Of a stretch of DNA of 64,000 nucleotides, positions 29,971 through 49,811 are shown one piece after another. Below the pieces are notes generated by a model. That model was not told the origin of the DNA. It saw only the letters and a program-made list of their open reading frames with translations, and did no database searches. Numbering within the stretch: the first letter of the stretch is position 1; every line of letters begins with the position of its first letter. The position numbers and the translations under genes are program-made. The stretch is from Deltaproteobacteria bacterium (GTDB lineage Bacteria; Myxococcota; Myxococcia; SLRQ01): the NCBI GenBank assembly GCA_029210625.1, contig JARGFU010000014.1, positions 50,956-114,955 of the forward strand, written 5' to 3'.

Positions 29971-30968
29971 GCCGCCACCTCCCGGTCGCCCCCACCCCGC
30001 GGCGCCCCGGCCCGGGGCAGCAGGGCCAGCGTCGAGAGGAGCCGCCGCCGGTGGGCCCGCCCCTCTCCCGGCCCGAGGCTCGAGGAGGGGGTGTCCAGGG
30101 CGACCGCGTCCCCCTGCTGGAGGTGGGCCTCGAGGGTGGAGGCCGCGTCCCGGATGGCGGCCTCGTAGGCCGCGTCGTCTCCCTCGGGGCCCCGCAGGAC
30201 GAGGCGCACCTGCCCGCCGGTGGAGAGCTCCCGCTCCACGATGAGCAGGGTCCCCATCCGCAGGGAGCGGCGCCAGTGGATCTGGCGGGCCTCGTCGCCG
30301 AGGCGGTAGGGCCGCAGGGCGTGCAGCTCGTCACCGCTCCCGGCCCGCGGGCGGCTGGCGGCCAGCGCCCGGCTGCGGGCGACCGGCTCGAGGCGGGTGG
30401 CGCGGCCCCGCCCGGGCCAGACCAGGAGGGTGGTGCCCTCGCGCAGGTGGCGGGTCTTGGCGAAGATCCCGAAGGGGTAGCGGGTGGTGACCCGCAGCAC
30501 GCCCAGCTTCAGCTCCCCCCGCCGCTCGGCCTTGACCCGCAGGCGCAGGTTCCGGGAGGAGGAGGCGGGCAGGTGGAAGAGCGTGGCCTCCTCGACGGAG
30601 TAGCCCTCGCCGGGCTCGGCGGTGAAGCGCAGCCCGATGGAGGGGAAGAGGCGGTTGCCGTTGTGCACCTCCAGCCCGACCAGGGTGGGCTCGCCGGCGC
30701 GGATCTCGGGAGGCAGGCGCAGACGCAGGGAGATGCGCTTGAGCGCCGACTCGGAGAGCAGCCCCGAGAGGACGATCAGGGCCAGCAGCACGCCGAGGGC
30801 CAGGAAGAGGAGGTTGTTGCCGGTGTTCACCGCGGCGAAGCCGACCCCGAAGGTGAGGCCGATGTAGTAACGGCCCTCCCGGGTCACCTTCAGGGAGCGG
30901 GGCGGCCGCAGGAAGCGGCGCAAGGCCCTCCACCCGGTCCGCCAGCGGCTCTCGAGCACCCTGGACAC
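29967..30968 (-). CDS. DUF58 domain protein
   Basis: Two N-terminal TM segments. LRPYRLGDEARQIHWRRSLRMGTLLIVERE signature. Overlaps the TGase start by 4 nt. Confidence 0.8.
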   Translation of the reverse strand: MSRVLESRWRTGWRALRRFLRPPRSLKVTREGRYYIGLTFGVGFAAVNTGNNLLFLALGVLLALIVLSGLLSESALKRISLRLRLPPEIRAGEPTLVGLEVHNGNRLFPSIGLRFTAEPGEGYSVEEATLFHLPASSSRNLRLRVKAERRGELKLGVLRVTTRYPFGIFAKTRHLREGTTLLVWPGRGRATRLEPVARSRALAASRPRAGSGDELHALRPYRLGDEARQIHWRRSLRMGTLLIVERELSTGGQVRLVLRGPEGDDAAYEAAIRDAASTLEAHLQQGDAVALDTPSSSLGPGEGRAHRRRLLSTLALLPRAGAPRGGGDREVAA

Positions 30969-30975
30969 CTCGTCT

Positions 30976-31950
30976 CTAGGTGGGGACCGGCACCTCGGTC
31001 ACCAGGCTCTCCAGGAGGGCCTCGGACTGGGCGCGGGTGGGATCCTCGCCGGAGGCCAGCACCAGGCGGTGGGCCCAGCAGGGCCTCGCGAGGGCCTTCA
31101 CGTCGGCGGGGGTGACGTAGTTGCGGCCGCGCAGGAGCGCCCGTCCCCGGGCGAGGCGGGTGAGGGCCAGGGTCGCGCGGGTCGAGGCGCCCGCGGCGAT
31201 CTCGCCGCTCTGCCGGGTGGCCTCGGCGAGGTGCAGGACGTACTCGGCCACCGAGCGCTCGACCCGCACGTGATCGACCTCCTTGCGCAGGGCGAGGACC
31301 TCCTCGGCGGAGCTCACCGGCTCGAGCGCCGCGACCGGATCGCCGCCCTCCCGGGAGATGAGCAGCCGGCGCTCGTCCTCGGGCGAGGGGTAGCCCACCG
31401 AGAGGCGCAGCATGAAGCGATCGAGCTGGGACTCGGGCAGGGGGTAGGTGCCGTAGTGCTCCAGGGGGTTCTGGGTGGCGATGACCAGGAAGGGATCCGG
31501 CAGGGCGTGGGTCTTGCCGTCGACGGTGACCCGCCCGTCGCTCATCGCCTCGAGCAGGCTGGACTGGGTGCGGGGGCTGGTGCGGTTGAGCTCGTCGGCC
31601 AGCACCACGCTGGCGAAGACCGGCCCCGGCGCGAAGCGCAGCGTGCCGTCCATCTTCCCGGCCTCGGGCACCGCCGAGCCGACGATGTCGGCCGGGAGCA
31701 GATCCGAGGTGAACTGGATGCGGGAGAATGGGAGGCCCAGGCTGCGGGCGAGGGCGTGGGCCAGGGTGGTCTTGCCGACGCCGGGCACGTCCTCGAGCAG
31801 GACGTGGCCCCCGGCGAGGAGGGCCAGCAGACACAGCTCGACGGCCTCGGCCTTGCCGACCACCGCGCGGGCGACGCTCTCGCTGACCCGCTGGGCGAAC
31901 TGCTGCACCTCGAGGAGCTCTTTCTTCGCAGCGACTTGCACGGTCACCAC
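30976..31950 (-). CDS. MoxR-like AAA+ ATPase
   Basis: GHVLLEDVPGVGKTTLAHALARSLG (Walker A); VVLADELNRTSPRTQSSLLEAM (Walker B). GTG 31950 shares 1 nt with the upstream TAG. The track start at 32145 is rejected. Confidence 0.85.
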   Translation of the reverse strand: MVTVQVAAKKELLEVQQFAQRVSESVARAVVGKAEAVELCLLALLAGGHVLLEDVPGVGKTTLAHALARSLGLPFSRIQFTSDLLPADIVGSAVPEAGKMDGTLRFAPGPVFASVVLADELNRTSPRTQSSLLEAMSDGRVTVDGKTHALPDPFLVIATQNPLEHYGTYPLPESQLDRFMLRLSVGYPSPEDERRLLISREGGDPVAALEPVSSAEEVLALRKEVDHVRVERSVAEYVLHLAEATRQSGEIAAGASTRATLALTRLARGRALLRGRNYVTPADVKALARPCWAHRLVLASGEDPTRAQSEALLESLVTEVPVPT

Positions 31951-32891
31951 TATAGACCGTCGGGAGGGCCGCGCTCTTCCCGGAGGTCGAGGACGAAGGC
32001 GTCGATGGGCTCTCCCCGGGCGGGGCTCACCGCCACCCGGCGCGCGGCCGGCTGGAAGCCCGCCCCCAGGAAGAGGCCGCGGGAGGCCAGGTTGTCCCGG
32101 GCGATCTCGGCGTGGAGGCTCTCGAGCCCCTCCTCCCGGGCCCACTGGATCGCGGCCGCGAGGAGCGCCCGACCGAAGCCCCGCCCCCTTATCAGCGGTC
32201 GCAGCTGGATCTGGAGGAGCCCCCTCCCCTCTCGCCGCAGCAGGCGCAGCCCGCCCAGCGCGCGCCGGCCGCCGCCGCCCGCCTCGACCACCCAGAAGTG
32301 GCTCGCCTCGGCGGCGGGGGGCGCCTCCTCGCTGACCACCGCCTCACGCCAGAGGCCGAGGGCGGAGAGCCCCTGCAGGTCGGCGGGCTCGAGGCGCTCG
32401 AGGCGCCGCAGGTGCAGCCCGGCCGGCCGCGACGCCCGGGCCTCCAGGCCCTCCCGCAGCCGGCGCAGCGCGGGCAGCACCCGTGGGTGGGAGAGGGCCC
32501 CCGAGATCCGCTGCAGGGTTCGCCCCACCCCGGGGGAGAGGGCGAGCCGGGTGCGCAGGCGCCCACCCCCGCCGGCCGGGTCGGGCACCCAGACCCCCAC
32601 CACCCGCTCCAGGGGGATCCGCTCGATCCCGGCCCCGGGCCGGTCGGCGCGAAGCAAGAGGGCGCCCTCGGCGAGGCCGACCACCCGGTGGGCCAGCCAG
32701 CCCTCCTCGGTCTCGTAGACCGCGACCTCCCCGCGCCGCGGCGTCCGCGCCTCGACGCTCAGGGGCTGCCCCGGCACCAGCAGGGGCGCCATCGAGACCC
32801 CCGCGAGGTAGAGCCGGGCCCGCCCCTGCTCCCGCAGGCCGAGGCGCAGCGCCCGGTGGAGGCGACGGATCCGGGGGCGGCTCGAGCTCAT
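31950..32891 (-). CDS. Fusion of a SipW/Sec11-type (S26B-like) peptidase domain and a GNAT acetyltransferase domain
   Basis: N-terminal GVSMAPLLVPGQ...GEVAVYETEEGWLAHRVVG (Ser motif plus HRV His motif), with no TM segment. C-terminal IRGRGFGRALLAAAIQWAREEG...ARDNLASRGLFLGAGF (GNAT motif A). Confidence 0.6.
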   Translation of the reverse strand: MSSSRPRIRRLHRALRLGLREQGRARLYLAGVSMAPLLVPGQPLSVEARTPRRGEVAVYETEEGWLAHRVVGLAEGALLLRADRPGAGIERIPLERVVGVWVPDPAGGGGRLRTRLALSPGVGRTLQRISGALSHPRVLPALRRLREGLEARASRPAGLHLRRLERLEPADLQGLSALGLWREAVVSEEAPPAAEASHFWVVEAGGGGRRALGGLRLLRREGRGLLQIQLRPLIRGRGFGRALLAAAIQWAREEGLESLHAEIARDNLASRGLFLGAGFQPAARRVAVSPARGEPIDAFVLDLREERGPPDGL

Positions 32892-34856
32892 TCAGGGTCC
32901 GCAGGGGAGGCCATCGGGCGCGACGACCTCCCGCGCCTCCCGCAGGCAGCCCTGCACGTCCCGGGCGAGGGCCGGGGTCCCGGGATCGCCCCGGTCGTCC
33001 TGCACGCTCCAGGTCAGGGGGAGCTGCCAGGGGCGGTTCGGATCCGAGCTGACGCCGGCCCGCTGGGTGATGCCCAGGGAGACCTGGAGCCCGGTGGCCT
33101 CGTCCCGGAAGTAGGGCTCCCAGGCCAGCTCGGGGAAGCCGGTGCTCGAGAGCCACTGCTGCCAGAACCAGCCCAGGTCCGCCCCGGCCTCGGCCTCCGC
33201 CGCGGCGGTGAAGGCGTCGGTGCTGGTGTCGGCGAAGCGGGTGGCCGCGGCGTACGCCCCCAGCGCCCGATCGAAGGCCTCCCGTCCGAGGGCGGACTCG
33301 AGGTGGCGCAGCACCCAGGCCCCCTTCAGGTAGAAGACGTAGTCCTGCAGCTGGCCGGGATCCTGGGGCCGCACCGGCACGTCCCGCCCGGGCTGGCCGC
33401 CGTAGCCGTTGTCGACCAGCTCCAGCAGGAGGGTCAGATCCTCTCCGGCGTGCGCGCGGGCGGCGTCGGGGCCGGCGAGCAGCTCCAGGGCGCGGTGCGC
33501 GCAGTAGTCGGCCAGCCCCTCGATGAGCCAGGCGTCGCGCAGGTCGGCGACGAAGCTCGCGTGGGCCCACCATGCGTGGGAGAGCTCGTGGGCGAGGAGG
33601 AAGCGGGACCAGGTGCTCGGGGCCTGATCCCAGCGCACCGTCGGCAGGAGCACGAGCCCGGGACCCGAGTAGCCCACCCCGAAGGCGTCCGGCACCTGCA
33701 CCATCGCGATCTCACCCCCGGGGAGGGGGCCGAAGCGCTCGACGTAGAAGGCGAGCACCGTGGCGAGCTCGGCGGTGTGCTGGACCAGATCGGGGCCGCC
33801 GCTGGCGAGCGCCGCCAGGGTCAGGCCTCCCGGCCCGCCGGCCTCCTGGTAGGCGCCGGCGGCGAGGAGGGGCCAGGCTCGCAGGGGCTGGGAGAGCTCG
33901 CGGGTGGTGACGCTGCGCCCGGCGCCGGCGGCCACCCGATCGACCTCGCTGCCCCCGGTGTGCACCCGGAAGGCGTCCGGCGCCTCGACGGCGATGCTGA
34001 AGGTGATGGCGCCCGAGGGGAGGTCGGCGGGCCGGGGGAACCAATCCACGCCGTCGCCGGCGTAGACCAGCTCGGCGGTGGCGTCGGCCACGGTGCGCCC
34101 GCTGCGGCTCTGGGAGAAGCTGGCCACCCGCCAGTCGATCTCGAGGGTGACGGTCGAGCCGGCGGGGCGGCTGAAGGCGAGGTCCACCGTGACGCCGTCG
34201 GGGCCCGGCGCGAAGGTGAGCGGCGCGCCGCTGCCGTCGCGCACGGCCGAGACGGTGCCGAGCACCCCCAGCTCCAGCGCCGTGAGCGCGACCAGCGGCT
34301 CGAAGGTCAGCCTCGCGGTGCCCACCAGATCGTCCCCCGAGGGGTCGAGGAGGGAGAGGTCGAGCTGCACCGCGCGCATCTCCAGTTGCTGGGGCGGCCA
34401 GGCCGGATCGATGGTCCAGGTGAAGCCCGCCGGGGAGTCCAGGCCCTGGCTCTCGCTGCCGGTGCCGGCGGGCCAGTGGACCGGGCCGCGCAGCTCGCCG
34501 TTCACCGCGCGCACGCCGACCCGCTCGGTCTTCTTCGGCAGCTCGAGGCGCGTCTCGCCCTCGGCCAGGGGCGTCGTGAAGGTCTCGCCCTCCTTCACCA
34601 GGATCGCCTCCCAGCGCTCGGCGACGCTCTCGAGGGGCGGATCGAAGGTGAGCACCTCGCCGTCGCTCTCCACGGTCGGCGCCAGCAAGCCCGGCGCGGC
34701 GCCGAAGGGCACCCGGGCGTCCGGGTCGAGGCGCACCACCACGCCCTCGTAGAGCTCGCCGGCGGGCTCCAGCTCCAGCTTCGGGCCGCAGGCCGCGATC
34801 CCCAGGAGCACCGTCACGAGAAGAACGGTCTTCAGCTCATCCACGTCCCACCCCAT
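32892..34856 (-). CDS. M1-family zinc metallopeptidase lipoprotein
   Basis: LLGIAACG lipobox. HELSHAWW plus E exactly 18 residues later (WLIEGLADY), which is HEXXH-X18-E. No canonical GAMEN motif. Stop is adjacent to the next start (TGAATG). Confidence 0.8.
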   Translation of the reverse strand: MGWDVDELKTVLLVTVLLGIAACGPKLELEPAGELYEGVVVRLDPDARVPFGAAPGLLAPTVESDGEVLTFDPPLESVAERWEAILVKEGETFTTPLAEGETRLELPKKTERVGVRAVNGELRGPVHWPAGTGSESQGLDSPAGFTWTIDPAWPPQQLEMRAVQLDLSLLDPSGDDLVGTARLTFEPLVALTALELGVLGTVSAVRDGSGAPLTFAPGPDGVTVDLAFSRPAGSTVTLEIDWRVASFSQSRSGRTVADATAELVYAGDGVDWFPRPADLPSGAITFSIAVEAPDAFRVHTGGSEVDRVAAGAGRSVTTRELSQPLRAWPLLAAGAYQEAGGPGGLTLAALASGGPDLVQHTAELATVLAFYVERFGPLPGGEIAMVQVPDAFGVGYSGPGLVLLPTVRWDQAPSTWSRFLLAHELSHAWWAHASFVADLRDAWLIEGLADYCAHRALELLAGPDAARAHAGEDLTLLLELVDNGYGGQPGRDVPVRPQDPGQLQDYVFYLKGAWVLRHLESALGREAFDRALGAYAAATRFADTSTDAFTAAAEAEAGADLGWFWQQWLSSTGFPELAWEPYFRDEATGLQVSLGITQRAGVSSDPNRPWQLPLTWSVQDDRGDPGTPALARDVQGCLREAREVVAPDGLPCGP

Positions 34857-35871
34857 CCTCTCCCACCGAGGCGAAGGCCTCGTCGAAGTCTCGCTCGAAG
34901 GTCTCCCGGAAGATCATCTGGCTCGCGACCAGCCGCCGCTCCTGCTCCCGGCTCGAGAGCAGCGCGTCGAGGCGGCGGGTCGCCTCGGGATCCGATAGCA
35001 GCTCCACACAGGTCTTGCACACCGGCACCTCGCTCGAGGTCTCCCGCCCCAGGCAGGCGGCCAGCGCCCGCGGCCCCAGCGCGGCGACCCCGGCCAGGAC
35101 CCGATCGTGGCGGGCGGCCTGAAGCGCGGCGCCCGGATCGTCGCCGGCGGCGAGGTCCGCCAGCACGTAGGCGCTCTCGGGGCCGCAGTCGAGGGTCGGC
35201 CCGCAGCAGGCCCGGAGCACGCCCCGGTAGTCGAGGGAGAGGAAGCGCAGGTTGGAGCAGCCCCCCTCGGTCGCCGCCTCGCTCCCCCCGAAGAGCTCCG
35301 GGGGGAGCCGCTCCGCGCGCCCGAAGGGAGAGAGCTCGGCCCGGAAGAGATCGACCCCGGCGGCGCGCAGGCGGCGGGTGGCCTCGGCGACGGCGGGCTC
35401 CCCGGGGCGGCCGGTGAGCTGGACGATGACCGGCAGCCCCGCGGCCTGGCAGAGGCGCGCCGCCGAGATGACCAGCTCCAGCCCCCCGAAGGGGGCGTGG
35501 TGGGCGTCGTGGGAGAGGTTCACGAGCACCACCCCGGCCTCGCGGAACGCCGCCAGGGTGCGGGCCGCCTCCCCGGGCTCCCGGGCGAAGTCCCCGGCCG
35601 AGACGACGCTCACCGGCACCCGGCCGCCCACCTGCCGGGCCAGGGCGACCACCAGCTCGGGCTCGAGGAAGGGCTCACCCCCGGTGAGGCTCACCGCTCG
35701 CACGTGGGGGAGGATGGCCTCCAGGCCGGGCAGGGCCCAGGCGAGGTCCAGCCGCTCCTCCCGCTTCGGACCGGAGCGGGTGTAGCAGTGGGCGCAGGCG
35801 AAGGGGCAGCGGGCGGTCACCAGCACCGCGAGGCCGGTGAACTCCAGGAAGGGCGGCCGCTCAGCCGGCAT
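34837..35871 (-). CDS. Radical SAM enzyme with a Twitch/SPASM-like C-terminal Cys motif (rSAM E)
   Basis: TARCPFACAHCYT (CX3CX2C); TGGEPFLEPE; C-terminal CSNLRFLSLDYRGVLRAC (CX11GX4C) followed by C, then CKTC. ATG 35871 verified; it overlaps the upstream gene by 11 nt. Confidence 0.8.
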   Translation of the reverse strand: MPAERPPFLEFTGLAVLVTARCPFACAHCYTRSGPKREERLDLAWALPGLEAILPHVRAVSLTGGEPFLEPELVVALARQVGGRVPVSVVSAGDFAREPGEAARTLAAFREAGVVLVNLSHDAHHAPFGGLELVISAARLCQAAGLPVIVQLTGRPGEPAVAEATRRLRAAGVDLFRAELSPFGRAERLPPELFGGSEAATEGGCSNLRFLSLDYRGVLRACCGPTLDCGPESAYVLADLAAGDDPGAALQAARHDRVLAGVAALGPRALAACLGRETSSEVPVCKTCVELLSDPEATRRLDALLSSREQERRLVASQMIFRETFERDFDEAFASVGEDGVGRG

Positions 35872-36619
35872 AGACCGCGTCCCGGGTGAAGCGCAGGCGC
35901 CCGTGCTCGACCTCCGAGAGGAGGCGCAGGAGGGAGGGGACCTGCGCCGCGCGCAGCCGCGCTTCCTCCCCCTCTCCTCCCGCCTCACCCGGAGCGTAGA
36001 TCTGCCCGGCCAGGTGGGAGAGGACCTCCGAGGCCGGGCGGCGCTCGAAGCGGGTCTCGGCGGCCTGCTCGAGCCAGGCGATCCGCGTCAGGGGGTAGAC
36101 CTCGCTGCGGCCGGGGCGGCCGCCGTCGGACCACCAGGGGGTGCCGCAGAGGCGCCAGCCCTCGGGGGTGGGGAAGACGAGGGCGCTCTCCTCGGTGATC
36201 GCCCGCGCGCCGGCGTTGCCCGCCAGGGTGGTCTTGCCCACCTCGGGGGGGCCGAAGCAGAGGTGCGCCCCCTCCCCCACCTCGAGGGCGGCGGCGTGGA
36301 CCAGGAAGCCCCCGAGGGGAGCGATCGCCCGCACGAGGACGAAGCGCAGCGCGGCCCGCAGCTGCTCCATGCCCACCGGGCCGGCCGCCCGCACCACCCG
36401 CGGTCCGAGGGCCTCGATCCGCATCGCGCGCGCACCCTCGAGCTCGAGGCGGCGCGCGCGGTGGCTCACCGGCCCGTGCTCGAGGTGGTAGGCCTCCGCG
36501 CCGGGCGGGCCGGCCGGCGCCCCCGCCCCGAAGACCTCCTGCCAGACCCGATCGAGCCTGATCTCCACCGGCCCCAGCGAGAGCGGCGCGTGGGCCTCAG
36601 CCCTGGCCGGACGACTCAT
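35861..36619 (-). CDS. HprK-like P-loop kinase family protein
   Basis: GGFLVHAAALEVGEGAHLCFGPPEVGKTTLAGN resembles the HPr kinase C-terminal-like fold seen in peptide-modification cassettes. The start overlaps the precursor ORF by 23 nt. Confidence 0.6.
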   Translation of the reverse strand: MSRPARAEAHAPLSLGPVEIRLDRVWQEVFGAGAPAGPPGAEAYHLEHGPVSHRARRLELEGARAMRIEALGPRVVRAAGPVGMEQLRAALRFVLVRAIAPLGGFLVHAAALEVGEGAHLCFGPPEVGKTTLAGNAGARAITEESALVFPTPEGWRLCGTPWWSDGGRPGRSEVYPLTRIAWLEQAAETRFERRPASEVLSHLAGQIYAPGEAGGEGEEARLRAAQVPSLLRLLSEVEHGRLRFTRDAVYAG

Positions 36620-36767
36620 TCTCGTCCGGCGGCGCGTCCCGGAAGGGGCCCGAGAAGATCACGCCCCCGGTGCCACTGCCGCCCAGGGGCGTCACGAAGC
36701 GCAGGGTCTCGGTGATGATGGCGGGCGACTCGTAGGGCAGCCGCTCCTTCTTCTCGACTTCACTCAT
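36597..36767 (-). CDS. 56-aa candidate RiPP precursor peptide (Cys-free)
   Basis: MSEVEKKERLPYESPAIITETLRFVTPLGGSGTGGVIFSGPFRDAPPDENESSGQG. AGGAG lies 8 nt upstream of ATG 36767, one of the best RBS in the window. It has a YxxPxI leader-type motif and is translationally coupled to the kinase-like gene. Confidence 0.65.
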   Translation of the reverse strand: MSEVEKKERLPYESPAIITETLRFVTPLGGSGTGGVIFSGPFRDAPPDENESSGQG

Positions 36768-36804
36768 CTCATACTCCTGGTGGGTCCGCCCGGGGGCGGG
36801 ACCG

Positions 36805-39800
36805 TCAGTCATGATACACGATGATGGTCCCGTTGGTCGGGGTGGACACAAGATCGGCCACGAGCAGGTCGGGCCGTCCATCTCCATTGTAGTCCCCGAT
36901 GTCCACGGACAAACCCACGGCCGCCAGACTGGCCGAGAGCAGCTCGGTGTCGGGATAGAGGGGGTAGTGGGTCCCGGAGCCGGTGTTGAAGTAGATCCCG
37001 GCCCCGGAGGGGGTAGTGGCGTTGTTCGAGCCCACGGCCAGGTCCGGGCGGCCGTCGAGGTTCAGGTCCCCGACGGCGAGGTCGAAGCCCCAGTTCGCCA
37101 CGGCCTGCCCCACGGGCACCCGGAGGGTCGTCAGCAGGGCGCCGACGCCCGCGGCGGAGGTGGGGTAGATCCGCACCCGCCGGTGGTCCGCGTCCGCGAG
37201 GATGAGCTCGGGGGTGGCGGCGCCGGTGACGAAGGCGGAGACCGCCCGGTTGCCCAGGGCGTTGGCCTTCTGGCTCGCGGTGGTGCTGCCCGAGGTGGCG
37301 CCGGTGAGGGTGGTGAGGGTGCCGGTGGTCGCCGAGACCGTGCCCGAGGCCGCGCCGAGGCTCGCCCCGTCGTAGACGTAGGTGGTGGCGATGGTGGAGG
37401 CCGGCAGGGTGAGCTCCTCGGCGCCGTCGCCGTCGAGGTCTCCGAGGCCGGTGACGCCCCAGCGGTAGCCGAAGATGTCGTCCACCGCCCCACCCTCGAG
37501 GGTGAGCTCGGCCAAGGTCACGGGGACGTAGAAGGTGACCCCGCCGTCGTCGGTCGCGGTCTGGGCCACCTGCCAGGCGGCCTTGGTCCGGCCGGCGAAG
37601 ACGTAGGCCCGGCCCCGGGCGGAGGCGGCGCCCGGCGCGCCCACGATCAGCTCGGCGCGCCCGTCGGGCGTCGCGTCGGCCACCTGCCGGAAGTCGGCCG
37701 GCGCCCCGACCATCTTGCCGAACTCGCCGACGCCGGTGGCGCCGCGCAGCTCGACGAAGTCGGCGGCGTTCAGCCAGCAGAGGCTGAAGTCGGCGCTGCA
37801 GTCGGTGCCGCTGCGGTCCTGGCCGAAGTAGATCCGCACCCGGCCGCGGTTGGCGCCATAGCCGCTGGCGCCCACGATCAGATCGGGGATGCCGTCGCCG
37901 GACACGTCGCCGGAGGCGAGGTGCATGCCGAAGAGATCCCCCGCGAGGCCCGGCGAGAGGCGCTGGCGGCGGGCGTCCTGCGCGCTGTAGGCGGCGCCCC
38001 CGTAGTAGACGTAGGTGGCGCCGGCGGCGTTCGCGCCGGAGACCCGGAGGGTGACCGCCGAGGCGGCGAAGTCGGGGTGGCCGTCGTTGTTCACGTCACC
38101 GATGCCGGCCATCTGCCAGGGGAAGTTCCCGCCCTCCCCCATCAGGTTGGTCACCGTCCAGGGGTTGGCCTCGGTCACCACGTTGACCAGGGGCGAGCGG
38201 TTGCCCACCTCGTCCTCCGCCCGCAGGGCGATCCAGTAGGAGTTGATCGGCGGCAGGGGGGTGAGCGCGAGGCTCTGGCCGGTCCCCGGCGCGCCGGGCG
38301 CGAAGCCGACGGTGAAGGGGTGCGCCCCGTCGAAGTCGGTCTCGTTGGCGATCGCCGCGTGCTCCCAGCTCAGGCTGTAGGCCGCCGCCGTGCCGCTGTT
38401 GCCGTCGTCGCCGGTGTCGGTCCAGGTGAGCTCGACGGTGGCCGCCCGGTTGTCCGTGAGGCTCGAGCTGACGGCCGGCGCGGCCGGCGCCTGCACGTCG
38501 ACGGTGATCGGCACGATGTCCTCGATCGTGTTGCCCGCCGCGTCGGTCACGCGGGCGGTCAGATCCCCGACGCTGTCCTGGGCGATGACGACGTCCACCA
38601 GGCTCACGGTCTGCGGGGAGCTGGTGATGCTCACCGCGCTCACGAGGTCCGCGCCACCGAAGAGCAGGCGCAGGGTGCCGCCGATGGCGCCGGTGACCTC
38701 GAAGGTGAAGTCCGCCTCGAGGTTGCCGCCGGCGATCCCGTCCTGCACGACGGTGGTGCCCATCCAGGTGCCCGCGGCGAGGTAGCGGTTGGTCGCCGAC
38801 ACGAAGGTGAAGGCCGCGCCCACCGGGGCGGTGCGCGTGAGCCCGGGCGCCGTCACGTCCACCGAGGCGTCGAAGGTGGAGGTGGTGACGTTGCTGGCCG
38901 CGTCGACGATCCGCGCCATCACCGGCACCCCGGTGGCGCCGTCGGCCAGCCCCAGGAGGAAGGAGGCGTTGCCCGTGCCCGCGTCGCTGGCGACGGTGGT
39001 GACGAGGCTGCCCGAGACCCAGAGCTCGATGTCCCGACCGGCGCAGTCCGAGGTGGAGGCGGTGACGGTCGTCTGCAGGCCGGCGGTGCCCGGCTGCTCG
39101 TCGTCGCTCACCACGAAGGTGACGTTGGCGCTGGCGGGATCCAGCCAGCGGATGCTGCAGCCGAGGGTGTCGACGGTGATCTGCACCGGGCTGGAGACGC
39201 CGACGTTCCCGGCGGTGTCGGTGACCTCGGCCCGGACGTCGTAGGTGGCGTCCGAGAGGCTCACGGCCTCGGTCTGGGGCTGGCTGGCGGCGACGGTGCG
39301 GTTGGCCAGGGTGCCGCCGGTCCCCTGATCGACGAGGATCAGGGGGTTGCCGGTGGCGGCGCCCGCGACCTGGATCTGGAAGTCGACGCTGCCCACGTTG
39401 AGGGTCGTCCCGCCGGCCGGCGAGAGGATCGACACGGTGGGCGGCAGGGTGTCGACGGTGACGGCGCGCTCGGTGTTGGCCGGGTTGCCCACGGCGTCCT
39501 GGACCTGCACCCGCAGCTGGTGGCTGCCCTGGGTCAGGCTCTGCCCGGCGAGGCTCGCGGCGCCGCCGGAGAGGGTGGCGGTGCCGACCGTGCTCCCGTC
39601 CACCAGGAAGGTGACGGTCTGGCCGTCCTCTGCGTTGGAGACCACGGCGTAGGTGAAGTCGTAGTCGGCGGTGGCGGGGATGGCGTCGCCCGCCGCGTTC
39701 AGGTTGCTGCCCGCCGGGCCCGAGATGGCGATCGTCGGCGCGACCGTGTCCACGATCAGCGGCAGCTGCGCTTGGGGATCGGAGAGCGGCGGGTTCACCG

Positions 39801-42800
39801 AACGGTTGGGGTTGCCGGCCGCGTCGTAGACGGTGGCGACGAGGGCGTGTCCGCCCTGGGCCAGGGTCCCGCAGATCGTCGCGGTGCCGCCGGAGACGGT
39901 CGCGGTGCCGACCAGGGTGCCGGCCGCCGGGTTGTTGGTCTCGATCCGGGCCACCTGGCCATCGGCGTCCACCGCCGTGAGGGTGAGGCAGACCTGCCCC
40001 CCGCTCCCGGCGAGCTCGAGGGCGTTGATCGAGCCGGAGGGCGCCATGGTGTCGGTGTCCGCCACGAAGGTCAGCACGTCCGGAGGCGTGGTGTCGGCGC
40101 AGAGGGCCAGGGGCGCGGAGGAGCTGTAGTTCCCGGCCCGGTCGCGCACCTCGGCCTGCAGGGTCTGCACGCCATCGGCCAGGGTCGCCGGCAGGAAGAC
40201 CGCGACGTTGCCCGAGACCGTCGACTCGTCGATCACGAAGGCCGAGGGGTTGCCCTGGCAGCTGCCGAGGCCGCTGCCCGGATCCACGCTCGTGCAGAGG
40301 GAGAGGGGCAGGCCGTCCTCGACCCCCACGGTGCTCACGTCCACCTGCAGCTGCAGCCCGGCGAGGGTGCCGTTCAGGTCGTCGAAGACGTTGAAGCAGG
40401 GAGGGAGGCTCGTGGGATCCGGGCGGGTGATGGAGACCACCGGGGCGCCCCGATCCACGGTCACCGTGACGCTGGACTCGGTGATGTTGCCGGCCGGGTC
40501 GGTGGCCACGGCCACCAGGCTGACCGTGTCGGTGTCACCGAGGGTCAGGGTCGTCCCGTTGAAGATGTGATCGACGGCGGCGGCGGCGGGAGAGATCGGT
40601 GATCCCTCGGCCGGCTTGCGGCTCCAGCCGGTGGCCCCGGTGTCGCCGAAGGTGTTGGTGACCAGCAGGGCCACGCTCCCGGCCGTCCCGACCCCGGAGA
40701 AGCTCACCCGCACGTTGCGCTGGAAGCCAGCGGTGCCGGAGGTGTCGTCGCCGTCGTTGAAGATCCGCCCGGTCAGGATGCCGGGGAAGGCGACGGTCGG
40801 GGCCAGGCGATCGACGCTCACGCTCACCGTGGCCGGGGTGCTGACGTTCCCGGCCTGATCGGTCGCGGTGAAGGTGAGGGTGCAGGTGGTCTGATCGTCG
40901 AGGGTCGGCCGCACGCGAGCCTCGATCTGCGTCCCGAAGACCCCGAAGGTCACCGGCAGGACGGTGGGCGCGGCGCCGCCGCAGCTCACCTCGAGCGAAC
41001 CCGCGGAGCCGGCCTTCACCGAGCTGCCGGTGGAGGGATCACTGGCCGTCCCGACGAAGGCGATCTGGAAGCCCGCGGCGGCGCTGGCATCGGCGTCGGT
41101 GAGGTTGAAGGTCTTGCCGTCGGCGGGGGAGGAGATCACGGCCACCGGCGCCTCGAGGTCCACCTCGACGGTGGTGCTCAGGGCCGGCGCCTCGTCCACG
41201 CCGCCCACGTCGCAGGTCGCCTCGAGGAGGTTCGTGCCGTGGTTGCCGGCGGCGTCGGTGGAGAAGGTGACGCCGGAGAAGACCAACTCGCCGCCCGAGG
41301 CGGTGCCGGTGGACGTGGTGGTGGCGCCGGAGGGATCGGTCAGGGAGAGCTCGACGGTCGCGCCGTCGGCCGCGGAGGTGCGCACCCGCACGTCCGCCTG
41401 CACCCCGTCCGAGAGATCGGCGTTCTGGTCCGCCGGGGCGCCCAGAGAGGCTCCGTCGATGGGCTGGACCAGGTTGCAGGTCACCACGCCGGTGCTCACC
41501 GTCACGTTGATGGAGCGCTCGCCGGTGAGGCCGGAGACCGAGGTGGCGACTGCCCGCAGCCGGTGCGGACCCTGGGGCAGGTCCACGGCCGGGAAGATCG
41601 CCCGGAGGGAGGCGTTGGTGGCCACGGGCCCGATGGGCGCCCGGTAGACGAAGGTGCCGCCGTCGTCGTAGCCGATCTGGAGCACCACGGAGGCGCCCGC
41701 CGGCTTGTTGGGCACCTGGACGGTCACGTCGTACTGGAATCCCGGGGCGGCGGCCACGTCGTCGGCGAGGGTCAGGAAGAGGCCATCGCTGGGCTGGACG
41801 AAGACCACCTGGGGCGGGTTCGCGTCGATGGTCACGCTGACCGGGCTGCTGCTGACCGCGTTGCCCGCGACGTCGGCGGCGCTGGCGGTCAGGACGTGGG
41901 CGCCCGAGGGGAGGTTCAGGGCCAAGAGCGTGCCATCGGAGGCGACGCTGCCGCTGCCGGAGAGCCCGGTGTCGGTGCTCACGCTGACGATCTGCCCGTC
42001 CTCGAGGCAGGTGGTGACCACCTCGACGGCGACCGAGGTGTCGTAGAGGGTCGCGCCGTCCTGCGGGAGGGCGATGGTGATCGCGGGCGGAGAGATGTCG
42101 ACGGTGAAGCTCACCGGCGCGCTGTCGAGGCCGGTGCCGCCCACGTCGATGGTGGCGGTGCAGGTGGCGAGGGCGCCCTCGCAGGGGAGGGAGGCGAAGG
42201 TGACCTCCACCCGGGCCGTCCCGGCGGCGCCGAGGCTGCCGGCGCCGGTCCCCGACGCGCCGGTGCAGACCACGCTCACCGCCGAGCCGGCCGGGAGGCC
42301 GGGCGCCGAGACGTCCACCGGCACGGTGGTGTCGGTGACGCCGGAGGATGCGCGGTTCACCAGCGCGCCCGCGGCGGGCGCGGCGATGGTGACCTGCTCG
42401 CTGCCGGTGGAGAGGACGAACTCCACCGGGCCGTCGGTGCCGACGTTGCCGGCGGGATCACCGATCGCGACCTCGGTGGACCAGGCGCCGTCGGCGTCGA
42501 GGGTGACCTCGAGGAGGTAGCGGTTGGCGTTGGTGGGATCGACGCAGCCGTCCACCCCCACGACGCAGGAGGCGGTGGCGGTGGCCCCGGTGTCCAGGTT
42601 GGTGAGGAGCAGGTCGATCTCGGCCGAGCGCTCGGGCTGCTGGGGGTCGGGGGTGACCTCCAGGCCGGGCGCCTCGACGGTGACGTCGATCTGGATGCCG
42701 TTGGTGGCGTCGCCGTCCTTGTCCGACGCGAGCCCGAGGAGGATGCCCGAGGTCGGGAAGAGCATCACCGGCGCGGGGCGCAGGGAGTCGACGTGGTAGT

Positions 42801-43839
42801 CCACCGGGGCGGAGAGGCCCGAGGGGCTGCCGGCCCCGGCCGGGCGCACCTCGACCTGCACCCGCACGGCCTCACCGTCGGGCAGGGTCACGGCGCCGAA
42901 GTCCACCGAGGTCGTGGTCACGTCCACCGTCGCGAGGTCCGCACCCTCGACCATCAGCACGGCCTGGCCGCCCTGGCAGTCGGGGGTGGTGGCCCCGAGG
43001 AGGGCCTGGATGCCGTTCGCTGCGTTCCCGTCCTCGTCGGGCACCGCGGTGCGGCCCGGCAGCCGGGGGGTGTCACCGTCGAGGTTGAAGACCACCGCGC
43101 CCTCGGGGCTGAGCCGCACCTCGCAGGAGGGGGTGTCGACGATCACCCGCACCTGATCGCTCCAGGAGCCCGCCGCCGCGGTCACGGTGGCGACCAGGAG
43201 GTTCGCGCCCTCGCTGAAGGTGACGGAGGGGAAGGTGGTGGTCGGGCCGGCGAAGACCACCGAGGGCAGCCCCCGGCCGTCGATGGTGAGGTTGGCGGGG
43301 GTGCCCGTGAGATCCTCGCTGCACTGCACGACCACGTCGTGCTGGAAGCCGCGGGTGCCGGGATCGGCGTCGTCCGCCTCGCCGAGGGTGGAGTCGGCGA
43401 CCGGCTGGACGAAGGCGCAGTCGAGGGTGACCGGGCGCTCCACCGCCACGGTGACGGTGTCGTTGGCCGCCAGCTCGCTCTCGCGGTCCCGCACCGAGAC
43501 CGTGATCCGGGCCAGCCCGTCCGCGGGATCGCCGACCACGGTGACCGCCGGGAAGGAGATGGTCGTCCCCACCACGAAGCCCGGCACGGCGAGGTTGGCG
43601 TCCTCGTTGACGATCACCGAGGCGCCGGAGCCGTCCTCGACGTTCTCGACGGTGGCTTCGACCGGGATCTGGATCCCCACCCGGCTGGGGTCGACGTCGT
43701 CGTCCAGGGTGATCACCTGCGCCTCGGTGGGGCTGGTGATGTTGATGACCGGCTCCTTGCCGCCCTTGCCGCACTTGCAGCCGGTCAGCGGCAGCAGGAC
43801 GACCAGCAGGAACATGAACGCCGAACTCAGGTGACGCAT
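36805..43839 (-). CDS. Giant surface lipoprotein: about 17 Ig-like repeats plus C-terminal FG-GAP/VCBS (integrin-alpha-like) repeats
   Basis: MRHLSSAFMFLLVVLLPLTGC lipobox; GAGGGAG upstream of ATG 43839. Recurrent ...P(P/T)V.I..P..G... Ig-type modules. FG-GAP motifs GDVNNDGHPDF, GDVSGDGIPDLIVGA, GDLDGDGAEEL, GDLNLDGRPDLAVGS and GDYNGDGRPDLLVAD. Confidence 0.85.
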   Translation of the reverse strand: MRHLSSAFMFLLVVLLPLTGCKCGKGGKEPVINITSPTEAQVITLDDDVDPSRVGIQIPVEATVENVEDGSGASVIVNEDANLAVPGFVVGTTISFPAVTVVGDPADGLARITVSVRDRESELAANDTVTVAVERPVTLDCAFVQPVADSTLGEADDADPGTRGFQHDVVVQCSEDLTGTPANLTIDGRGLPSVVFAGPTTTFPSVTFSEGANLLVATVTAAAGSWSDQVRVIVDTPSCEVRLSPEGAVVFNLDGDTPRLPGRTAVPDEDGNAANGIQALLGATTPDCQGGQAVLMVEGADLATVDVTTTSVDFGAVTLPDGEAVRVQVEVRPAGAGSPSGLSAPVDYHVDSLRPAPVMLFPTSGILLGLASDKDGDATNGIQIDVTVEAPGLEVTPDPQQPERSAEIDLLLTNLDTGATATASCVVGVDGCVDPTNANRYLLEVTLDADGAWSTEVAIGDPAGNVGTDGPVEFVLSTGSEQVTIAAPAAGALVNRASSGVTDTTVPVDVSAPGLPAGSAVSVVCTGASGTGAGSLGAAGTARVEVTFASLPCEGALATCTATIDVGGTGLDSAPVSFTVDISPPAITIALPQDGATLYDTSVAVEVVTTCLEDGQIVSVSTDTGLSGSGSVASDGTLLALNLPSGAHVLTASAADVAGNAVSSSPVSVTIDANPPQVVFVQPSDGLFLTLADDVAAAPGFQYDVTVQVPNKPAGASVVLQIGYDDGGTFVYRAPIGPVATNASLRAIFPAVDLPQGPHRLRAVATSVSGLTGERSINVTVSTGVVTCNLVQPIDGASLGAPADQNADLSDGVQADVRVRTSAADGATVELSLTDPSGATTTSTGTASGGELVFSGVTFSTDAAGNHGTNLLEATCDVGGVDEAPALSTTVEVDLEAPVAVISSPADGKTFNLTDADASAAAGFQIAFVGTASDPSTGSSVKAGSAGSLEVSCGGAAPTVLPVTFGVFGTQIEARVRPTLDDQTTCTLTFTATDQAGNVSTPATVSVSVDRLAPTVAFPGILTGRIFNDGDDTSGTAGFQRNVRVSFSGVGTAGSVALLVTNTFGDTGATGWSRKPAEGSPISPAAAAVDHIFNGTTLTLGDTDTVSLVAVATDPAGNITESSVTVTVDRGAPVVSITRPDPTSLPPCFNVFDDLNGTLAGLQLQVDVSTVGVEDGLPLSLCTSVDPGSGLGSCQGNPSAFVIDESTVSGNVAVFLPATLADGVQTLQAEVRDRAGNYSSSAPLALCADTTPPDVLTFVADTDTMAPSGSINALELAGSGGQVCLTLTAVDADGQVARIETNNPAAGTLVGTATVSGGTATICGTLAQGGHALVATVYDAAGNPNRSVNPPLSDPQAQLPLIVDTVAPTIAISGPAGSNLNAAGDAIPATADYDFTYAVVSNAEDGQTVTFLVDGSTVGTATLSGGAASLAGQSLTQGSHQLRVQVQDAVGNPANTERAVTVDTLPPTVSILSPAGGTTLNVGSVDFQIQVAGAATGNPLILVDQGTGGTLANRTVAASQPQTEAVSLSDATYDVRAEVTDTAGNVGVSSPVQITVDTLGCSIRWLDPASANVTFVVSDDEQPGTAGLQTTVTASTSDCAGRDIELWVSGSLVTTVASDAGTGNASFLLGLADGATGVPVMARIVDAASNVTTSTFDASVDVTAPGLTRTAPVGAAFTFVSATNRYLAAGTWMGTTVVQDGIAGGNLEADFTFEVTGAIGGTLRLLFGGADLVSAVSITSSPQTVSLVDVVIAQDSVGDLTARVTDAAGNTIEDIVPITVDVQAPAAPAVSSSLTDNRAATVELTWTDTGDDGNSGTAAAYSLSWEHAAIANETDFDGAHPFTVGFAPGAPGTGQSLALTPLPPINSYWIALRAEDEVGNRSPLVNVVTEANPWTVTNLMGEGGNFPWQMAGIGDVNNDGHPDFAASAVTLRVSGANAAGATYVYYGGAAYSAQDARRQRLSPGLAGDLFGMHLASGDVSGDGIPDLIVGASGYGANRGRVRIYFGQDRSGTDCSADFSLCWLNAADFVELRGATGVGEFGKMVGAPADFRQVADATPDGRAELIVGAPGAASARGRAYVFAGRTKAAWQVAQTATDDGGVTFYVPVTLAELTLEGGAVDDIFGYRWGVTGLGDLDGDGAEELTLPASTIATTYVYDGASLGAASGTVSATTGTLTTLTGATSGSTTASQKANALGNRAVSAFVTGAATPELILADADHRRVRIYPTSAAGVGALLTTLRVPVGQAVANWGFDLAVGDLNLDGRPDLAVGSNNATTPSGAGIYFNTGSGTHYPLYPDTELLSASLAAVGLSVDIGDYNGDGRPDLLVADLVSTPTNGTIIVYHD

Positions 43840-44022
43840 GAGCACAACTCCCTCGAGATTGGAGACAGCGGCGCTCGATCAGGATGTAGCGCGCGTACCT
43901 CTTTCCCTCCCGCGCGCCCGATCCTCTGGACCAGCGCCAATCAGAGGGATCCTAGCGGATATCGGTCGCTCTTGTCCCGATTCGGGGGGAGGGGCGCGCC
44001 GAGGGGCGCCCGCCCCCTGGCT

Positions 44023-44331
44023 TCAGCCCCGAGCGGCCAGGACCAGGAGCCCGCTCTCGATCAGCTTGCGGGCGAAGACCAGGACGTCGTCCCGGGCCTC
44101 GGGGAGCTCGACCTCGTAGCGCTCGCAGAGGGCCTGCGCGAGCTGCTCGAGGGAGGTGGAGCCGTCCATGCGCTCCCAGAGGAAGGGGCCGACGCCGGTC
44201 AGGGCGTGCATGACCCCCTCCGCGGGCTCGACCACGATGGTCTCGCCCTCGTACTGCTCGAACGCCAGCCCCTCCCGGGGCCTCGGGCAGGCCCCGAGAG
44301 ACAGGCTGGCTTTCGTCCCCCGTCCGGCCAA
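44023..44331 (-). CDS. PqqD-family protein (RiPP recognition element-like)
   Basis: [68 protein letters not shown] matches the PqqD pattern (LN..g..iW.l.dG..t..el...l...y.v......D...fl..L...gl). The only upstream in-frame start is TTG 44331, 3 nt after the etfA stop. Confidence 0.65.
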
Positions 44332-46374: not shown

Positions 46375-46441
46375 GGGCTCCGTTTCGTGACGGAGCCGGC
46401 CCGGTGATGCTCCGTTCGGCCCGGAGCCTCCGATCACCGGG
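46375..46441 (+). promoter_or_regulatory. Structured 5' leader: two related hairpins, one nested in a longer stem
   Basis: GGCTCCGT-ttcgtg-ACGGAGCC (46376-46397). CCCGGTGAT (46400-46408) pairs with ATCACCGGG (46433-46441), enclosing GCTCCG-ttcggcc-CGGAGC. Ends 7 nt before ATG 46449. Confidence 0.3.
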
Positions 46442-46448
46442 AGTGCAA

Positions 46449-49400: not shown

Positions 49401-49811
49401 GGCACCGCCCTCACCGTGGGTCCGGTCACCCCGAGCCCCCTCTCCCGCGCCGAGTTCCCCGACGGCGCCGTGAACCGCTCCATCCCCGACGTCTGGGGCA
49501 TGGCCTGGGTCGAGAGCACCGACTGCAGCGCCGCACCCCAGTGCGTCCACGCCACCTCGATCTCCTTCCCGCCCTCGTCGGGCTACGGCTACGAGGTGAA
49601 CGTCACTGCCCGGGACGGCACGGCCAACAACGGCAACTGCAAGCCGATCACCGCCCCCACCTGCACCCAGGCGGGCGCGGTCTGCGTCGACACCGGCACC
49701 GTCGGGGACGACATCGGCGAGTGCCAGGTGCAGCAGGCCTTCACCGTCCGGGCCCAGGCCGGCCCCTGCAGCCCCCTCTCGATCTACACGGCGACCGGCA
49801 CCGTCGACTGA
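46449..49811 (+). CDS. Large lipoprotein with seven Cys-rich DNDCDG modules and Ig-like (Big) domains
   Basis: [23 protein letters not shown] lipobox. Repeats of the CxDGxDNDCDGxxDCxDxDC type. Downstream, invasin/Big-like segments. Confidence 0.8.
46865..47935 (+). repeat. Seven tandem coding modules (about 150 bp each) of the Cys-rich DNDCDG type
   Basis: [21 protein letters not shown]; [20 protein letters not shown]; [20 protein letters not shown]; [20 protein letters not shown]; [21 protein letters not shown]; [20 protein letters not shown]; [20 protein letters not shown]. Confidence 0.85.

Follow-up and report, generated by a model that had tools for sequence, protein, structure and literature searches.

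Downstream of a very large surface-protein gene, the 64,000-nt stretch of DNA analysed here (the window) contains a small ORF of 56 codons, for which a sequence-only reading had proposed a role as precursor of an unknown RiPP class. Is this ORF a gene at all and, if so, what is made from its product? It is nested in a 96-aa ORF (36597..36887, minus strand), its translation is exactly the one quoted in that earlier reading, and the strong ribosome binding site claimed there is present as well (AGGAG, read from 36778 to 36774, with a 6-nt spacer to ATG 36767). However, the local DNA has a G+C content of 72%, and because long spurious ORFs abound in this region the ORF alone is weak evidence. Scans of the peptide against Pfam and NCBIfam gave no match either, so that a chance ORF in a G+C-rich spacer between two real genes had to be considered.

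This explanation retains practically no weight once homologous loci are compared. A search with the single peptide sequence retrieved one homologue only, and an alignment search added three further called peptides; in total, homologous small ORFs were found in six other sequences, all of them from metagenomes or MAGs, which together with the window form a clade of seven members. Pairwise dN/dS among the peptide genes is 0.19–0.24 at a dS of about 1, where synonymous sites are near saturation, and the only indels are in frame, so the conservation check proposed by the earlier reading was passed. The N-termini are conserved (MSE, MNE, or MES), an SD-like motif precedes the start codon in all nine loci checked, and analogous peptides occur in distant loci. 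Judged by these comparisons, the 56-residue ORF is a real gene that is conserved and under selection, and its interpretation as a chance ORF is already refuted. We also rejected the idea that frameshifting or readthrough joins the peptide to the giant protein encoded upstream, because the peptide has its own SD sequence and start codon at every locus and shares the MSE N-terminus. A GC hairpin between the stop codon of the giant gene and the SD sequence is as stable as shuffled sequence (z = 0.23) and is not conserved in locus L001. No promoter or terminator was found in a scan of positions 31500–37300, and a scan of the whole window against Rfam yielded no match.

The conservation profile of the peptide is that of a conserved leader followed by a variable Gly-rich stretch, an invariant SGPFR, and a variable tail. 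The YxxPx(L/I) leader motif recognized by the sequence-only reading (Y12–I17) proved to be the one feature common to all 13 related peptides that could be read (of 14 loci, one was without DNA): Y(-17)xxP(-14)x[ILVF](-12) occurs in each of them, always equally far from the predicted core. The same Y(-17)/P(-14)/L(-12) spacing is recognized and required by lasso B1 proteins (PMC10368454). Because the spacing matches lasso B1/PqqD recognition, the core was placed at G29–G56, leaving M1–L28 as the predicted leader, with Y12, P15, and I17 at -17, -14, and -12. Leu is usual at -1 in the related peptides; in the window, Pro27 is found at -2 and Thr26 at -3. A double-glycine leader ending at GG30, with cleavage at that site, is possible, but neither a C39 peptidase nor an ABC transporter to match it is present. 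Within the core, S39-G-P-F-R43 is invariant in the close clade and becomes GP(F/H)R if L007 is included. Two Phe triads had been pointed out previously. One of them contains the conserved pair F42-R43 (six peptides have F-R, and L007 has H-R), followed by D, E, or Q, or by Gly in L007, whereas the other, F38-S39-G40, is not conserved. Likewise, the Ser-rich acidic tail described for the window peptide varies among the homologues.

Table 1. Positions of the putative RiPP operon in the window, with the basis of each assignment.
Feature	Position	Strand	Basis
PqqD-family protein, 102 aa from TTG 44331, candidate RiPP recognition element	44023..44331	-	PF05402
Giant predicted lipoprotein, 2346 aa, Ig-like domains (Big_13, Big_3_3) and C-terminal FG-GAP repeats	36805..43845	-	Pfam; LTGC lipobox
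Shine-Dalgarno sequence AGGAG	36774..36778	-	6-nt spacer to ATG 36767
Putative precursor peptide gene, 56 aa	36597..36767	-	Translation and conservation across homologues
ScmC-like protein, HprK/PEPCK fold, P-loop, 252 aa	35861..36619	-	Homologue families, AlphaFold, Foldseek
YydG-like radical SAM enzyme, 344 aa from ATG 35871	34837..35871	-	PF04055; 11-nt overlap with upstream gene
M1-family-like metallopeptidase, 654 aa	32892..34856	-	PF01433 (E = 2.6e-14)
S24/S26-like Ser/His peptidase (N-terminal) fused to GNAT acetyltransferase (C-terminal)	31950..32891	-	Pfam GNAT; alignment

The genes of the operon (Table 1) are tightly packed, with overlaps of 23, 11, and 20 nt or directly abutting ends. 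The peptide is thus coupled translationally to the HprK-like P-loop protein and the radical SAM enzyme, whose adjoining genes the earlier reading had already linked to it. The 23-nt overlap that it reported between the end of the peptide ORF and the kinase-like gene holds if the latter starts at ATG 36619. In the public gene call, this protein starts 17 codons further down and has 235 aa, but we favour ATG 36619, because the AlphaFold model shows residues 12–22 as well structured and these residues are conserved among homologues. The operon is flanked by etfAB and moxR, and a nearby TgpA gene is part of a MoxR-DUF58-TgpA operon.

The protein encoded directly downstream of the peptide has homologues that carry the Pfam domain ScmC (PF27840). 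A profile search retrieved two close representatives only, followed by 4250 distant ones, and relatives match TIGR04249, TIGR04352, and TIGR04355, with TIGR04352 hit as often as ScmC. Its Walker A motif reads GPPEVGKTT. H108, G128, K129, and T131 do not vary among 38 relatives; position 143 is Glu, as opposed to Asp in 90% of the relatives. An AlphaFold model based on a 38-sequence alignment reached a pLDDT of 90.6 (merely 42 with three sequences), and Foldseek matched it to ATP-PEPCK and HprK/P with probabilities of 0.97–1.0, albeit at TM-scores of only 0.3–0.5. By its fold, Walker A motif, and conserved upstream His, the protein qualifies as an HprK/PEPCK-fold P-loop protein, while a kinase activity on the peptide is merely inferred. 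HprK homologues do phosphorylate lasso peptide precursors, in one case with the help of an RRE (PMC8498205; PMC10368454).

The radical SAM enzyme has its best NCBIfam match in YydG (TIGR04078), although the scores of 36 bits in the window, 49 in L003, and 68 in L007 remain far below the cut-off of 300. A profile of its clade matched the YydG structures 8AI1/8AI6 in the PDB with E = 1e-17 over 215 positions, and SkfB was next best (2e-9). The motifs CxxxCxHC, SxDxxHAPF, and CC are common to this clade and YydG, the CC motif is invariant in the clade, and the Cys ligands of the C-terminal auxiliary cluster are conserved. If an N-terminal tag of 25 residues is assumed for the PDB construct, the CC motif can be inferred to correspond to the region around Cys223, the hydrogen donor of YydG. 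The window enzyme lacks a canonical SPASM domain and is 43% identical to its L003 orthologue. YydG itself epimerizes Ile and Val (PMC5682303). Because the enzyme is clearly YydG-like, its action may give a RiPP of the epipeptide type without any new chemistry; the chemistry could nevertheless differ, since all matches to named enzyme families lie far under the curated cut-offs.

The PqqD-like partner gene assumed by the sequence-only reading was identified by phmmer with the PqqD protein of L004. It exceeds the Pfam cut-off (E = 9.6e-17) and encodes a PqqD-family protein, the candidate RRE; its best NCBIfam matches, the lasso PqqD chaperone and ScmD, are both under cut-off. The gene is located 7 kb from the peptide, beyond the giant gene, and has a counterpart at the same position in the distant locus L010. 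As the 7-kb gene and a 177-nt gap intervene, co-transcription with the peptide is not certain. At the other end of the operon, the M1-like protein (39% identical to its L003 orthologue) possesses the HELSH-x18-E motif and a lipobox-like N-terminus but no GAMEN motif. In the adjacent fusion protein, the catalytic Ser and His of the GxSMxP...H peptidase domain are invariant across an alignment with the S24/signal-peptidase-like proteins of L006, L010, and L011 and the fusions of L007 and L012. Scans of the operon genes revealed neither an exporter nor an immunity gene. The M1-like and giant proteins look extracytoplasmic, yet no exporter is encoded nearby.

Across the 14 loci, some of which are very distant, the shared core consists of a giant FG-GAP protein, a small peptide, and a ScmC-like protein. 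The giant FG-GAP gene, whose place in the conserved cassette the earlier reading had missed, is the immediate upstream neighbour of the peptide in 11 out of 12 loci with available upstream sequence (among them L001, L002, L003, L006, L007, L010, L011, L012, L013, and one JGI contig), and in the window as well as in L010 it is inserted between the PqqD and peptide genes. No such giant gene accompanies the peptide, PqqD, radical SAM, and ScmC-like genes of L004. The type of radical SAM enzyme varies with the peptide: Cys-free cores are paired with YydG-like enzymes (window, L003, L007), and Cys-containing cores with SPASM-type enzymes (L004, L006, L010, L011) or with none (L012, L013). This co-variation rests on 14 loci only. 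Because L012 and L013 lack a radical SAM enzyme, the family-defining step may be the reaction of the ScmC-like protein and not epimerization. When genomes and metagenomes were scanned with the kinase-like profile, just two distant loci, L004 and L005, were returned; the latter encodes a radical SAM/SPASM and ScmC-like pair, but no YxxP peptide was found there by the criteria used.

Several known systems resemble parts of this cassette. The SynChlorMet (SCM) cassette likewise combines a PqqD-family protein (ScmD, TIGR04248), an HprK-like protein (ScmC, TIGR04249/PF27840), and peptide-type radical SAM enzymes (ScmE/ScmF, TIGR04250/04251). However, the ScmC-like protein of the window scores only 14.6 bits with TIGR04249 (cut-off 125), and its homologues reach only the broader PF27840; the PqqD protein scores 35.3 bits with the ScmD model (cut-off 100), about as well as with the lasso PqqD model, and the radical SAM enzyme about 16 bits with ScmE/F (cut-off 400). 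Furthermore, SCM cassettes have two SPASM enzymes in place of the single YydG-like enzyme without SPASM, and the giant FG-GAP lipoprotein, the S24-GNAT fusion, and the M1-like peptidase are additional in the window. To our knowledge, no precursor is identified in the TIGRFAM description of the SCM cassette, whereas the window has an evident one. A literature search on SynChlorMet, ScmC, HprK with radical SAM, and PqqD with FG-GAP found nothing relevant. The HPr-rel-A system (kinase A, TIGR04352, and PqqD chaperone, TIGR04353) also pairs an HprK-related P-loop protein with a PqqD chaperone, but the window proteins score under its cut-offs and the gene content differs. With epipeptides, represented by YydF/YydG of Bacillus subtilis, the window shares the affinity of its radical SAM enzyme to YydG in NCBIfam and the PDB along with the common motifs, and a Cys-free core with hydrophobic residues available for epimerization (PMC5682303). 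Apart from the low equivalog scores, it differs in a precursor unrelated to YydF and in carriers that are G+C-rich, uncultured, and not Firmicutes. We also know of no PqqD, HprK-like, S24-GNAT, or giant surface protein in the yyd operon. Finally, lasso peptide clusters with HPr-kinase homologues (PadeK of paeninodin; BsfK with BsfB1 of Bradymonas) have in common with the window the YxxPx(L/I) motif, located at -17 to -12, and the combination of an RRE of the PqqD type with a kinase-like protein related to HprK. In the known clusters, this kinase phosphorylates a Ser of the linear precursor, either the C-terminal one or Ser3 in BsfA (PMC8498205; PMC10368454). These clusters possess a cyclase, a B2 protease, and a ring-forming Asp/Glu, all of which are missing in the window, where Pro at -2 and a radical SAM enzyme are found; moreover, the kinase-like protein reaches only 12 bits with HprK_rel_A.

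Taken together, we favour, with somewhat better than even confidence, the interpretation that the ORF encodes the precursor of an enzyme-modified RiPP, belonging to a rare clade of a wider uncharacterized family. Constant in this family are a peptide with a YxxP leader, a ScmC-like enzyme with HprK fold and P-loop, and a surface protein of giant size that carries FG-GAP repeats. Each step of the pathway outlined here is inferred from homology, and no experimental datum of any kind is available. The PqqD-family protein would bind the leader via Y12, P15, and I17, like lasso B1 proteins, and present the core to the modifying enzymes. The YydG-like enzyme would then abstract a C-alpha hydrogen from the core and donate one from a Cys of its own CC motif, converting one or more L-residues into D-residues; likely targets are the hydrophobic residues (V/I/F) just before SGPFR or residues inside this motif. 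The ScmC-like enzyme might act on the precursor as an ATP-dependent kinase, like the HprK-like kinases of lasso clusters, and phosphorylate a Ser or Thr, with S/T at core position 3 or S39 as candidates. Removal of the leader near the conserved L(-1) could be achieved by the S24/S26-like peptidase domain, after which the fused GNAT domain could acetylate the newly exposed N-terminus, and extracytoplasmic trimming of the product by the M1-like lipoprotein may follow. The product would thus be an RRE-dependent RiPP that probably contains D-amino acids and is possibly phosphorylated. The conserved gene order makes a link between its role and the giant surface protein likely.

The same precursor and cassette could also yield a different modification if the radical SAM enzyme formed a C–C or C–heteroatom cross-link, for example a triceptide-like cyclophane at the aromatic position of GP[F/H]R, which is invariant. 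An aromatic residue followed by Arg is indeed the most conserved feature of the core, the L007 enzyme weakly matches the cyclophane-forming AmcB (E = 6e-5), and the conserved ligands of the auxiliary cluster would fit such a reaction. Yet YydG is by far the best match of the clade, its hydrogen-donor motif CC is invariant there, a canonical SPASM motif is missing, and the third residue of the triad (D/E/Q) is replaced in L007 by Gly, which offers no C-beta for a triceptide-type link. We therefore regard a cross-link as improbable, though it deserves to be kept in mind. A lasso peptide, possibly a degenerate one, is suggested by YxxPxI at -17 to -12 before a Gly and by the PqqD-type protein and HprK-like kinase, as known from the paeninodin and Bsf clusters, but is very unlikely: neither an Asn-synthetase-like cyclase nor a transglutaminase-like B2 protease is encoded in the operon (genes 31950–44331 scanned), core positions 7–9 (G-V-I in the window) contain no Asp/Glu in any of six clade members, and Pro occupies -2, where a lasso precursor would have Thr or, rarely, Ile or Val. 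A radical SAM enzyme is present instead. In this respect the sequence-only reading, which had argued against a lasso peptide, was correct.

A further explanation starts from the giant FG-GAP lipoprotein, for which the small protein could be a dedicated partner, such as a ligand, assembly factor, or regulator, and not a leader-cleaved product; the enzymes would then decorate the peptide or act on the giant protein. The position of the giant gene, directly before the peptide in nearly all loci with upstream sequence and behind the PqqD gene in the window and L010, speaks for such a partnership, as does the lack of an exporter and an immunity gene. In contrast, a leader/core pattern, an RRE-type motif, and the co-variation of core and radical SAM enzyme mark the peptide as a substrate, no peptide-like segment was detected by the peptide HMM in any of the giant proteins, and L004 retains the other genes without the giant one. 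We thus consider a mere partner protein unlikely. A related proposal, which we put forward only as a tentative minority view, is a two-part system instead of an antibiotic-type RiPP. Here, a D-amino-acid-containing and/or phosphorylated peptide with GP(F/H)R-(D/E) would be made specifically for the giant Ig-like/FG-GAP lipoprotein, and could plug or bind its integrin-like beta-propeller or serve in assembly or signalling.

Under the preferred interpretation as a RiPP precursor, the peptide belongs to an uncharacterized family, and as far as can be deduced from homology, a YydG-like radical SAM epimerase is the probable enzyme of its modification. The precursor candidate proposed initially is supported, but its class is uncharacterized rather than unrecognized, because ScmC is included in Pfam (PF27840) and the related SCM and HPr-rel-A cassettes are included in NCBIfam. 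This precursor family of the ScmC type is rare, and we found no description of it although the enzymes are catalogued. ScmC/HprK-related proteins beside PqqD and radical SAM genes have long been listed without any product or function that we could find, and we know of no precursor for them either. The locus in the window and its relatives supply a precursor family together with a leader rule (Y at -17, P at -14, a hydrophobic residue at -12, and usually Leu at -1), and also a natural experiment in which the type of radical SAM enzyme tracks the Cys content of the core. If the proposed chemistry applies, YydG-type epimerization would extend beyond the Firmicutes and be joined to RRE-dependent recognition and an HprK-like kinase. 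The conserved giant surface-protein gene in the cassette is unexplained and the most intriguing aspect of the system, as the linkage to FG-GAP proteins hints that the RiPP has a cellular partner of its own, which would be unusual. Should the two-part system be real, a new class of RiPPs would be defined by the HprK-like enzymes of the ScmC type, with 4250 distant relatives in public data, and the peptides described here would be the first identifiable precursors of these enzymes.

The window has a G+C content of about 72% and is crowded with long meaningless ORFs, so the 56-codon peptide ORF alone proves nothing. As the sequence-only reading had described, it lies behind an AGGAG ribosome-binding site inside a 96-aa ORF (36597-36887), and its last 23 nt are shared with the next gene, whose ATG is at 36619. 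The translation is MSEVEKKERLPYESPAIITETLRFVTPLGGSGTGGVIFSGPFRDAPPDENESSGQG. A search of 5.8 billion proteins with this peptide returned the window's own gene call and one 53-aa homologue, P0002. The homologous small ORFs beside HprK-like genes for which the earlier reading had proposed to search were found in the contexts of the neighbouring gene's homologues, where L002 contains a called and L003 an uncalled copy (3033-3197; L001-L013 designate related loci from metagenomes or MAGs). Two more, P0155 and P0157, came from an alignment search; the gene call of P0155 probably starts too early, with 16 extra N-terminal residues. When the DNA of the window is aligned with L001, changes in the leader fall mostly on third positions, and the single 9-nt indel is in frame. 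Nei-Gojobori estimates gave a dN/dS of 0.19-0.24, with dS around 1 or saturated, and each of the nine loci checked has a Shine-Dalgarno-like motif ahead of the peptide's start codon. Judged by this comparative evidence, the peptide ORF is a real gene.

Features of the peptide cassette and its surroundings in the window
Feature	Position	Strand	Remarks
MoxR (AAA_3)-DUF58-TgpA operon	27910-32145	minus	directly downstream of cassette; TgpA transglutaminase-like
S24/S26-GNAT fusion	31950-32891	minus	N-terminal half S24/signal-peptidase-like; C-terminal half GNAT
M1-like metallopeptidase	32892-34856	minus	HELSH-x18-E; lipobox-like N-terminus (LLGIAAC)
Radical SAM gene	34837-35871	minus	PF04055
ScmC-like gene	35861-36619	minus	252 aa
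Peptide ORF	36597-36767	minus	ATG 36767, TGA 36597, 56 codons
Shine-Dalgarno AGGAG	36778-36774	minus	6 nt upstream of ATG 36767
Giant lipoprotein	36805-43845	minus	2346 aa; Big_13/Big_3_3 Ig-like domains, C-terminal FG-GAP repeats; upstream of peptide
PqqD-family gene	44023-44331	minus	PF05402, E=9.6e-17; just beyond giant gene
Secreted-looking protein	46404-49811	plus	1135 aa; beyond etfAB; many Cys-rich 'DNDCDG..DC.D..C' repeats

The YxxPx(L/I) leader motif proposed earlier recurs throughout. Anchored on Y..P.[ILVF], all 13 peptides read (that of the JGI locus, a further related contig without available DNA, was left out) begin with a basic N-terminal stretch, which the motif and 11 further residues follow, the last of them usually Leu. 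Exactly this Tyr(-17)/Pro(-14)/Leu(-12) spacing is what lasso B1 (PqqD-type) proteins require (PMC10368454), and from it the core is predicted to start at G29 in the window. The clade consensus begins with (R)LPY-x-x-P-x-[IV]-x-[ST]-E-x-[LI]-x-[FL]-[VA]-T-P-[LV]-G-G-[STA], continues with 3-8 variable Gly-rich or hydrophobic residues and ends in S-G-P-F-R-[DEQ]-x-P-P and an acidic/Gly tail. Of the two Phe triads noted before, invariance in this alignment is limited to F42-R43; FSG is not invariant. We consider it quite probable that the 56-aa peptide is a precursor.

The ScmC-like protein found no match in local Pfam or NCBIfam at normal thresholds and belongs to no curated equivalog, as the cut-offs were not reached. 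Both of its homologues in the big database carry the precomputed Pfam assignment PF27840 'ScmC'. Searched with a profile, 1.84 billion representatives yielded only two sequences below 1e-30, both from its own clade, 249 below 1e-10 and 4250 below 1e-3; most of the nearest 35 relatives match ScmC (TIGR04249) and the HprK-related kinases A and B, and a few match PEP carboxykinase. The AlphaFold model (pLDDT 90.6, 38-sequence alignment) matched ATP-dependent PEPCK and HprK/P in a Foldseek search of the PDB (probability 0.97-1.0, TM-scores only 0.3-0.5). The relatives all share the Gly-Lys-Thr of Walker A and a His upstream of it; at a position where Asp is nearly invariant, the window protein has Glu. 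On these grounds, it is a P-loop protein of the HprK/PEPCK fold and the ScmC superfamily. In the public gene call the start is placed 17 codons later, giving a protein of 235 aa and no overlap with the peptide; the homologue alignment and the predicted structure favour the longer form. One of the nearest 35 relatives also matches archaeal-type signal peptidase I, and this putative ScmC-S26 fusion supports a functional link of ScmC-like proteins with the S24/S26-like peptidases of these cassettes.

The four genes downstream of the peptide overlap or abut, and the cassette is flanked by etfAB on one side and the moxR-DUF58-tgpA operon on the other. In the S24/S26-GNAT fusion, alignment of the N-terminal half with its counterparts from related loci revealed a Ser/His dyad within an invariant GxSMxP...H motif. 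No GAMEN exopeptidase motif is present in the M1-like peptidase, whose conservation is confined to the window's own clade (L003); its sequence suggests an extracytoplasmic endopeptidase, an inferred activity, but no gene nearby encodes a peptide exporter.

Across the loci, the type of radical SAM enzyme changes with the type of core. Where cores are Cys-free (window, L003, L007), the best NCBIfam match of the radical SAM enzyme is the YydG epimerase family; L008 also has a YydG-like enzyme, its peptide lying off the contig. Cys-containing cores (L004, L006, L010, L011) accompany SPASM-type enzymes whose best matches are NirJ, AhbD, mycofactocin and sactipeptide maturases, and Cys-rich cores (L012, L013) have no radical SAM gene nearby. 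The profile built from all four YydG-like enzymes matched the YydG structures 8AI1/8AI6 with E=1e-17 (next best SkfB, 2e-9), aligning CxxxCxHC, SxDxxHAPF and an invariant CC pair. Provided that a 25-residue tag is present in the PDB construct, we infer this pair to correspond to native Cys222/Cys223; Cys223 is the hydrogen donor of YydG, which epimerises Ile and Val (PMC5682303). The window core has V-I-F immediately before SGPFR. Epimerisation specifically remains a tentative assignment, for which we would give somewhat less than even chances.

The cassette works like a blend of lasso, SynChlorMet (SCM) and YydF-type epipeptide systems, each of which was ruled out as its identity. Three defining features of lasso peptides fail. 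The locus has no Asn-synthetase-like cyclase, as the sequence-only reading had stated, and no B2 protease or exporter, and the TgpA transglutaminase domain should not be taken for the B2 protease. Membership of the SCM cassettes is excluded by the failure of all equivalog cut-offs, by radical SAM enzymes that differ in number and type and by the extra genes. Judged by precursor and operon, it is not a YydF-type epipeptide either. We rate the cassette as a kind of RRE-dependent radical SAM RiPP system; no paper describing it was found in open-access texts.

Gene content, homology, conservation and co-variation were observed, and every chemical step is inferred. In the best-supported model, the PqqD-family RRE would guide modification of the core by three activities. 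The YydG-like enzyme would epimerise the core, the HprK-like enzyme would act as a kinase, as such enzymes do in paeninodin and BsfA (PMC8498205, PMC10368454), and the S24/S26-like domain would remove the leader while its fused GNAT N-acetylates. The M1-like lipoprotein may trim the product.

Around nine more remote ScmC-like proteins (21-31% identity), the genes repeatedly come in the order giant FG-GAP protein, 44-61-aa peptide and ScmC-like protein, followed by radical SAM and/or S24 peptidase and/or GNAT genes; their giant proteins have a hydrophobic-aromatic C-terminal end. Upstream sequence is available for 12 loci, and in 11 of them the peptide comes after a giant FG-GAP gene. In L010 (251-8582) the PqqD gene again lies ahead of the giant gene (2587 aa), which thus separates PqqD and precursor genes as in the window, though the ScmC-like protein is only 27% identical. 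A Phycisphaerae MAG (L004, JAFGJQ010000372.1, 3144-5761) has an SCM-like cassette encoding PqqD (ScmD-like), radical SAM/SPASM, peptide and ScmC-like proteins without a giant gene. Its peptide gene, 60 aa long and annotated as hypothetical, sits between those for the radical SAM and the ScmC-like protein; with a KAYEKPRL leader and a 3-Cys core, it is likely a precursor for SCM-type cassettes. L012 (1043-3889) and L013 (4597-6430) form a subtype whose cores have 4-5 Cys, e.g., ..PNLF|CPTGTIDCGELGCVPPTSCA; they combine the ScmC-like gene with one or two S24-GNAT or GNAT genes and have no radical SAM gene nearby. This suggests that the modifying activity common to all loci is that of the ScmC-like enzyme rather than of the radical SAM enzyme. 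The constant parts across the loci are limited to the peptide, its ScmC-like neighbour and the giant surface protein. The product is therefore probably connected with this surface protein, a functional link that is unexplained and without test data, and the reaction that defines the family may be that of the ScmC-like protein.
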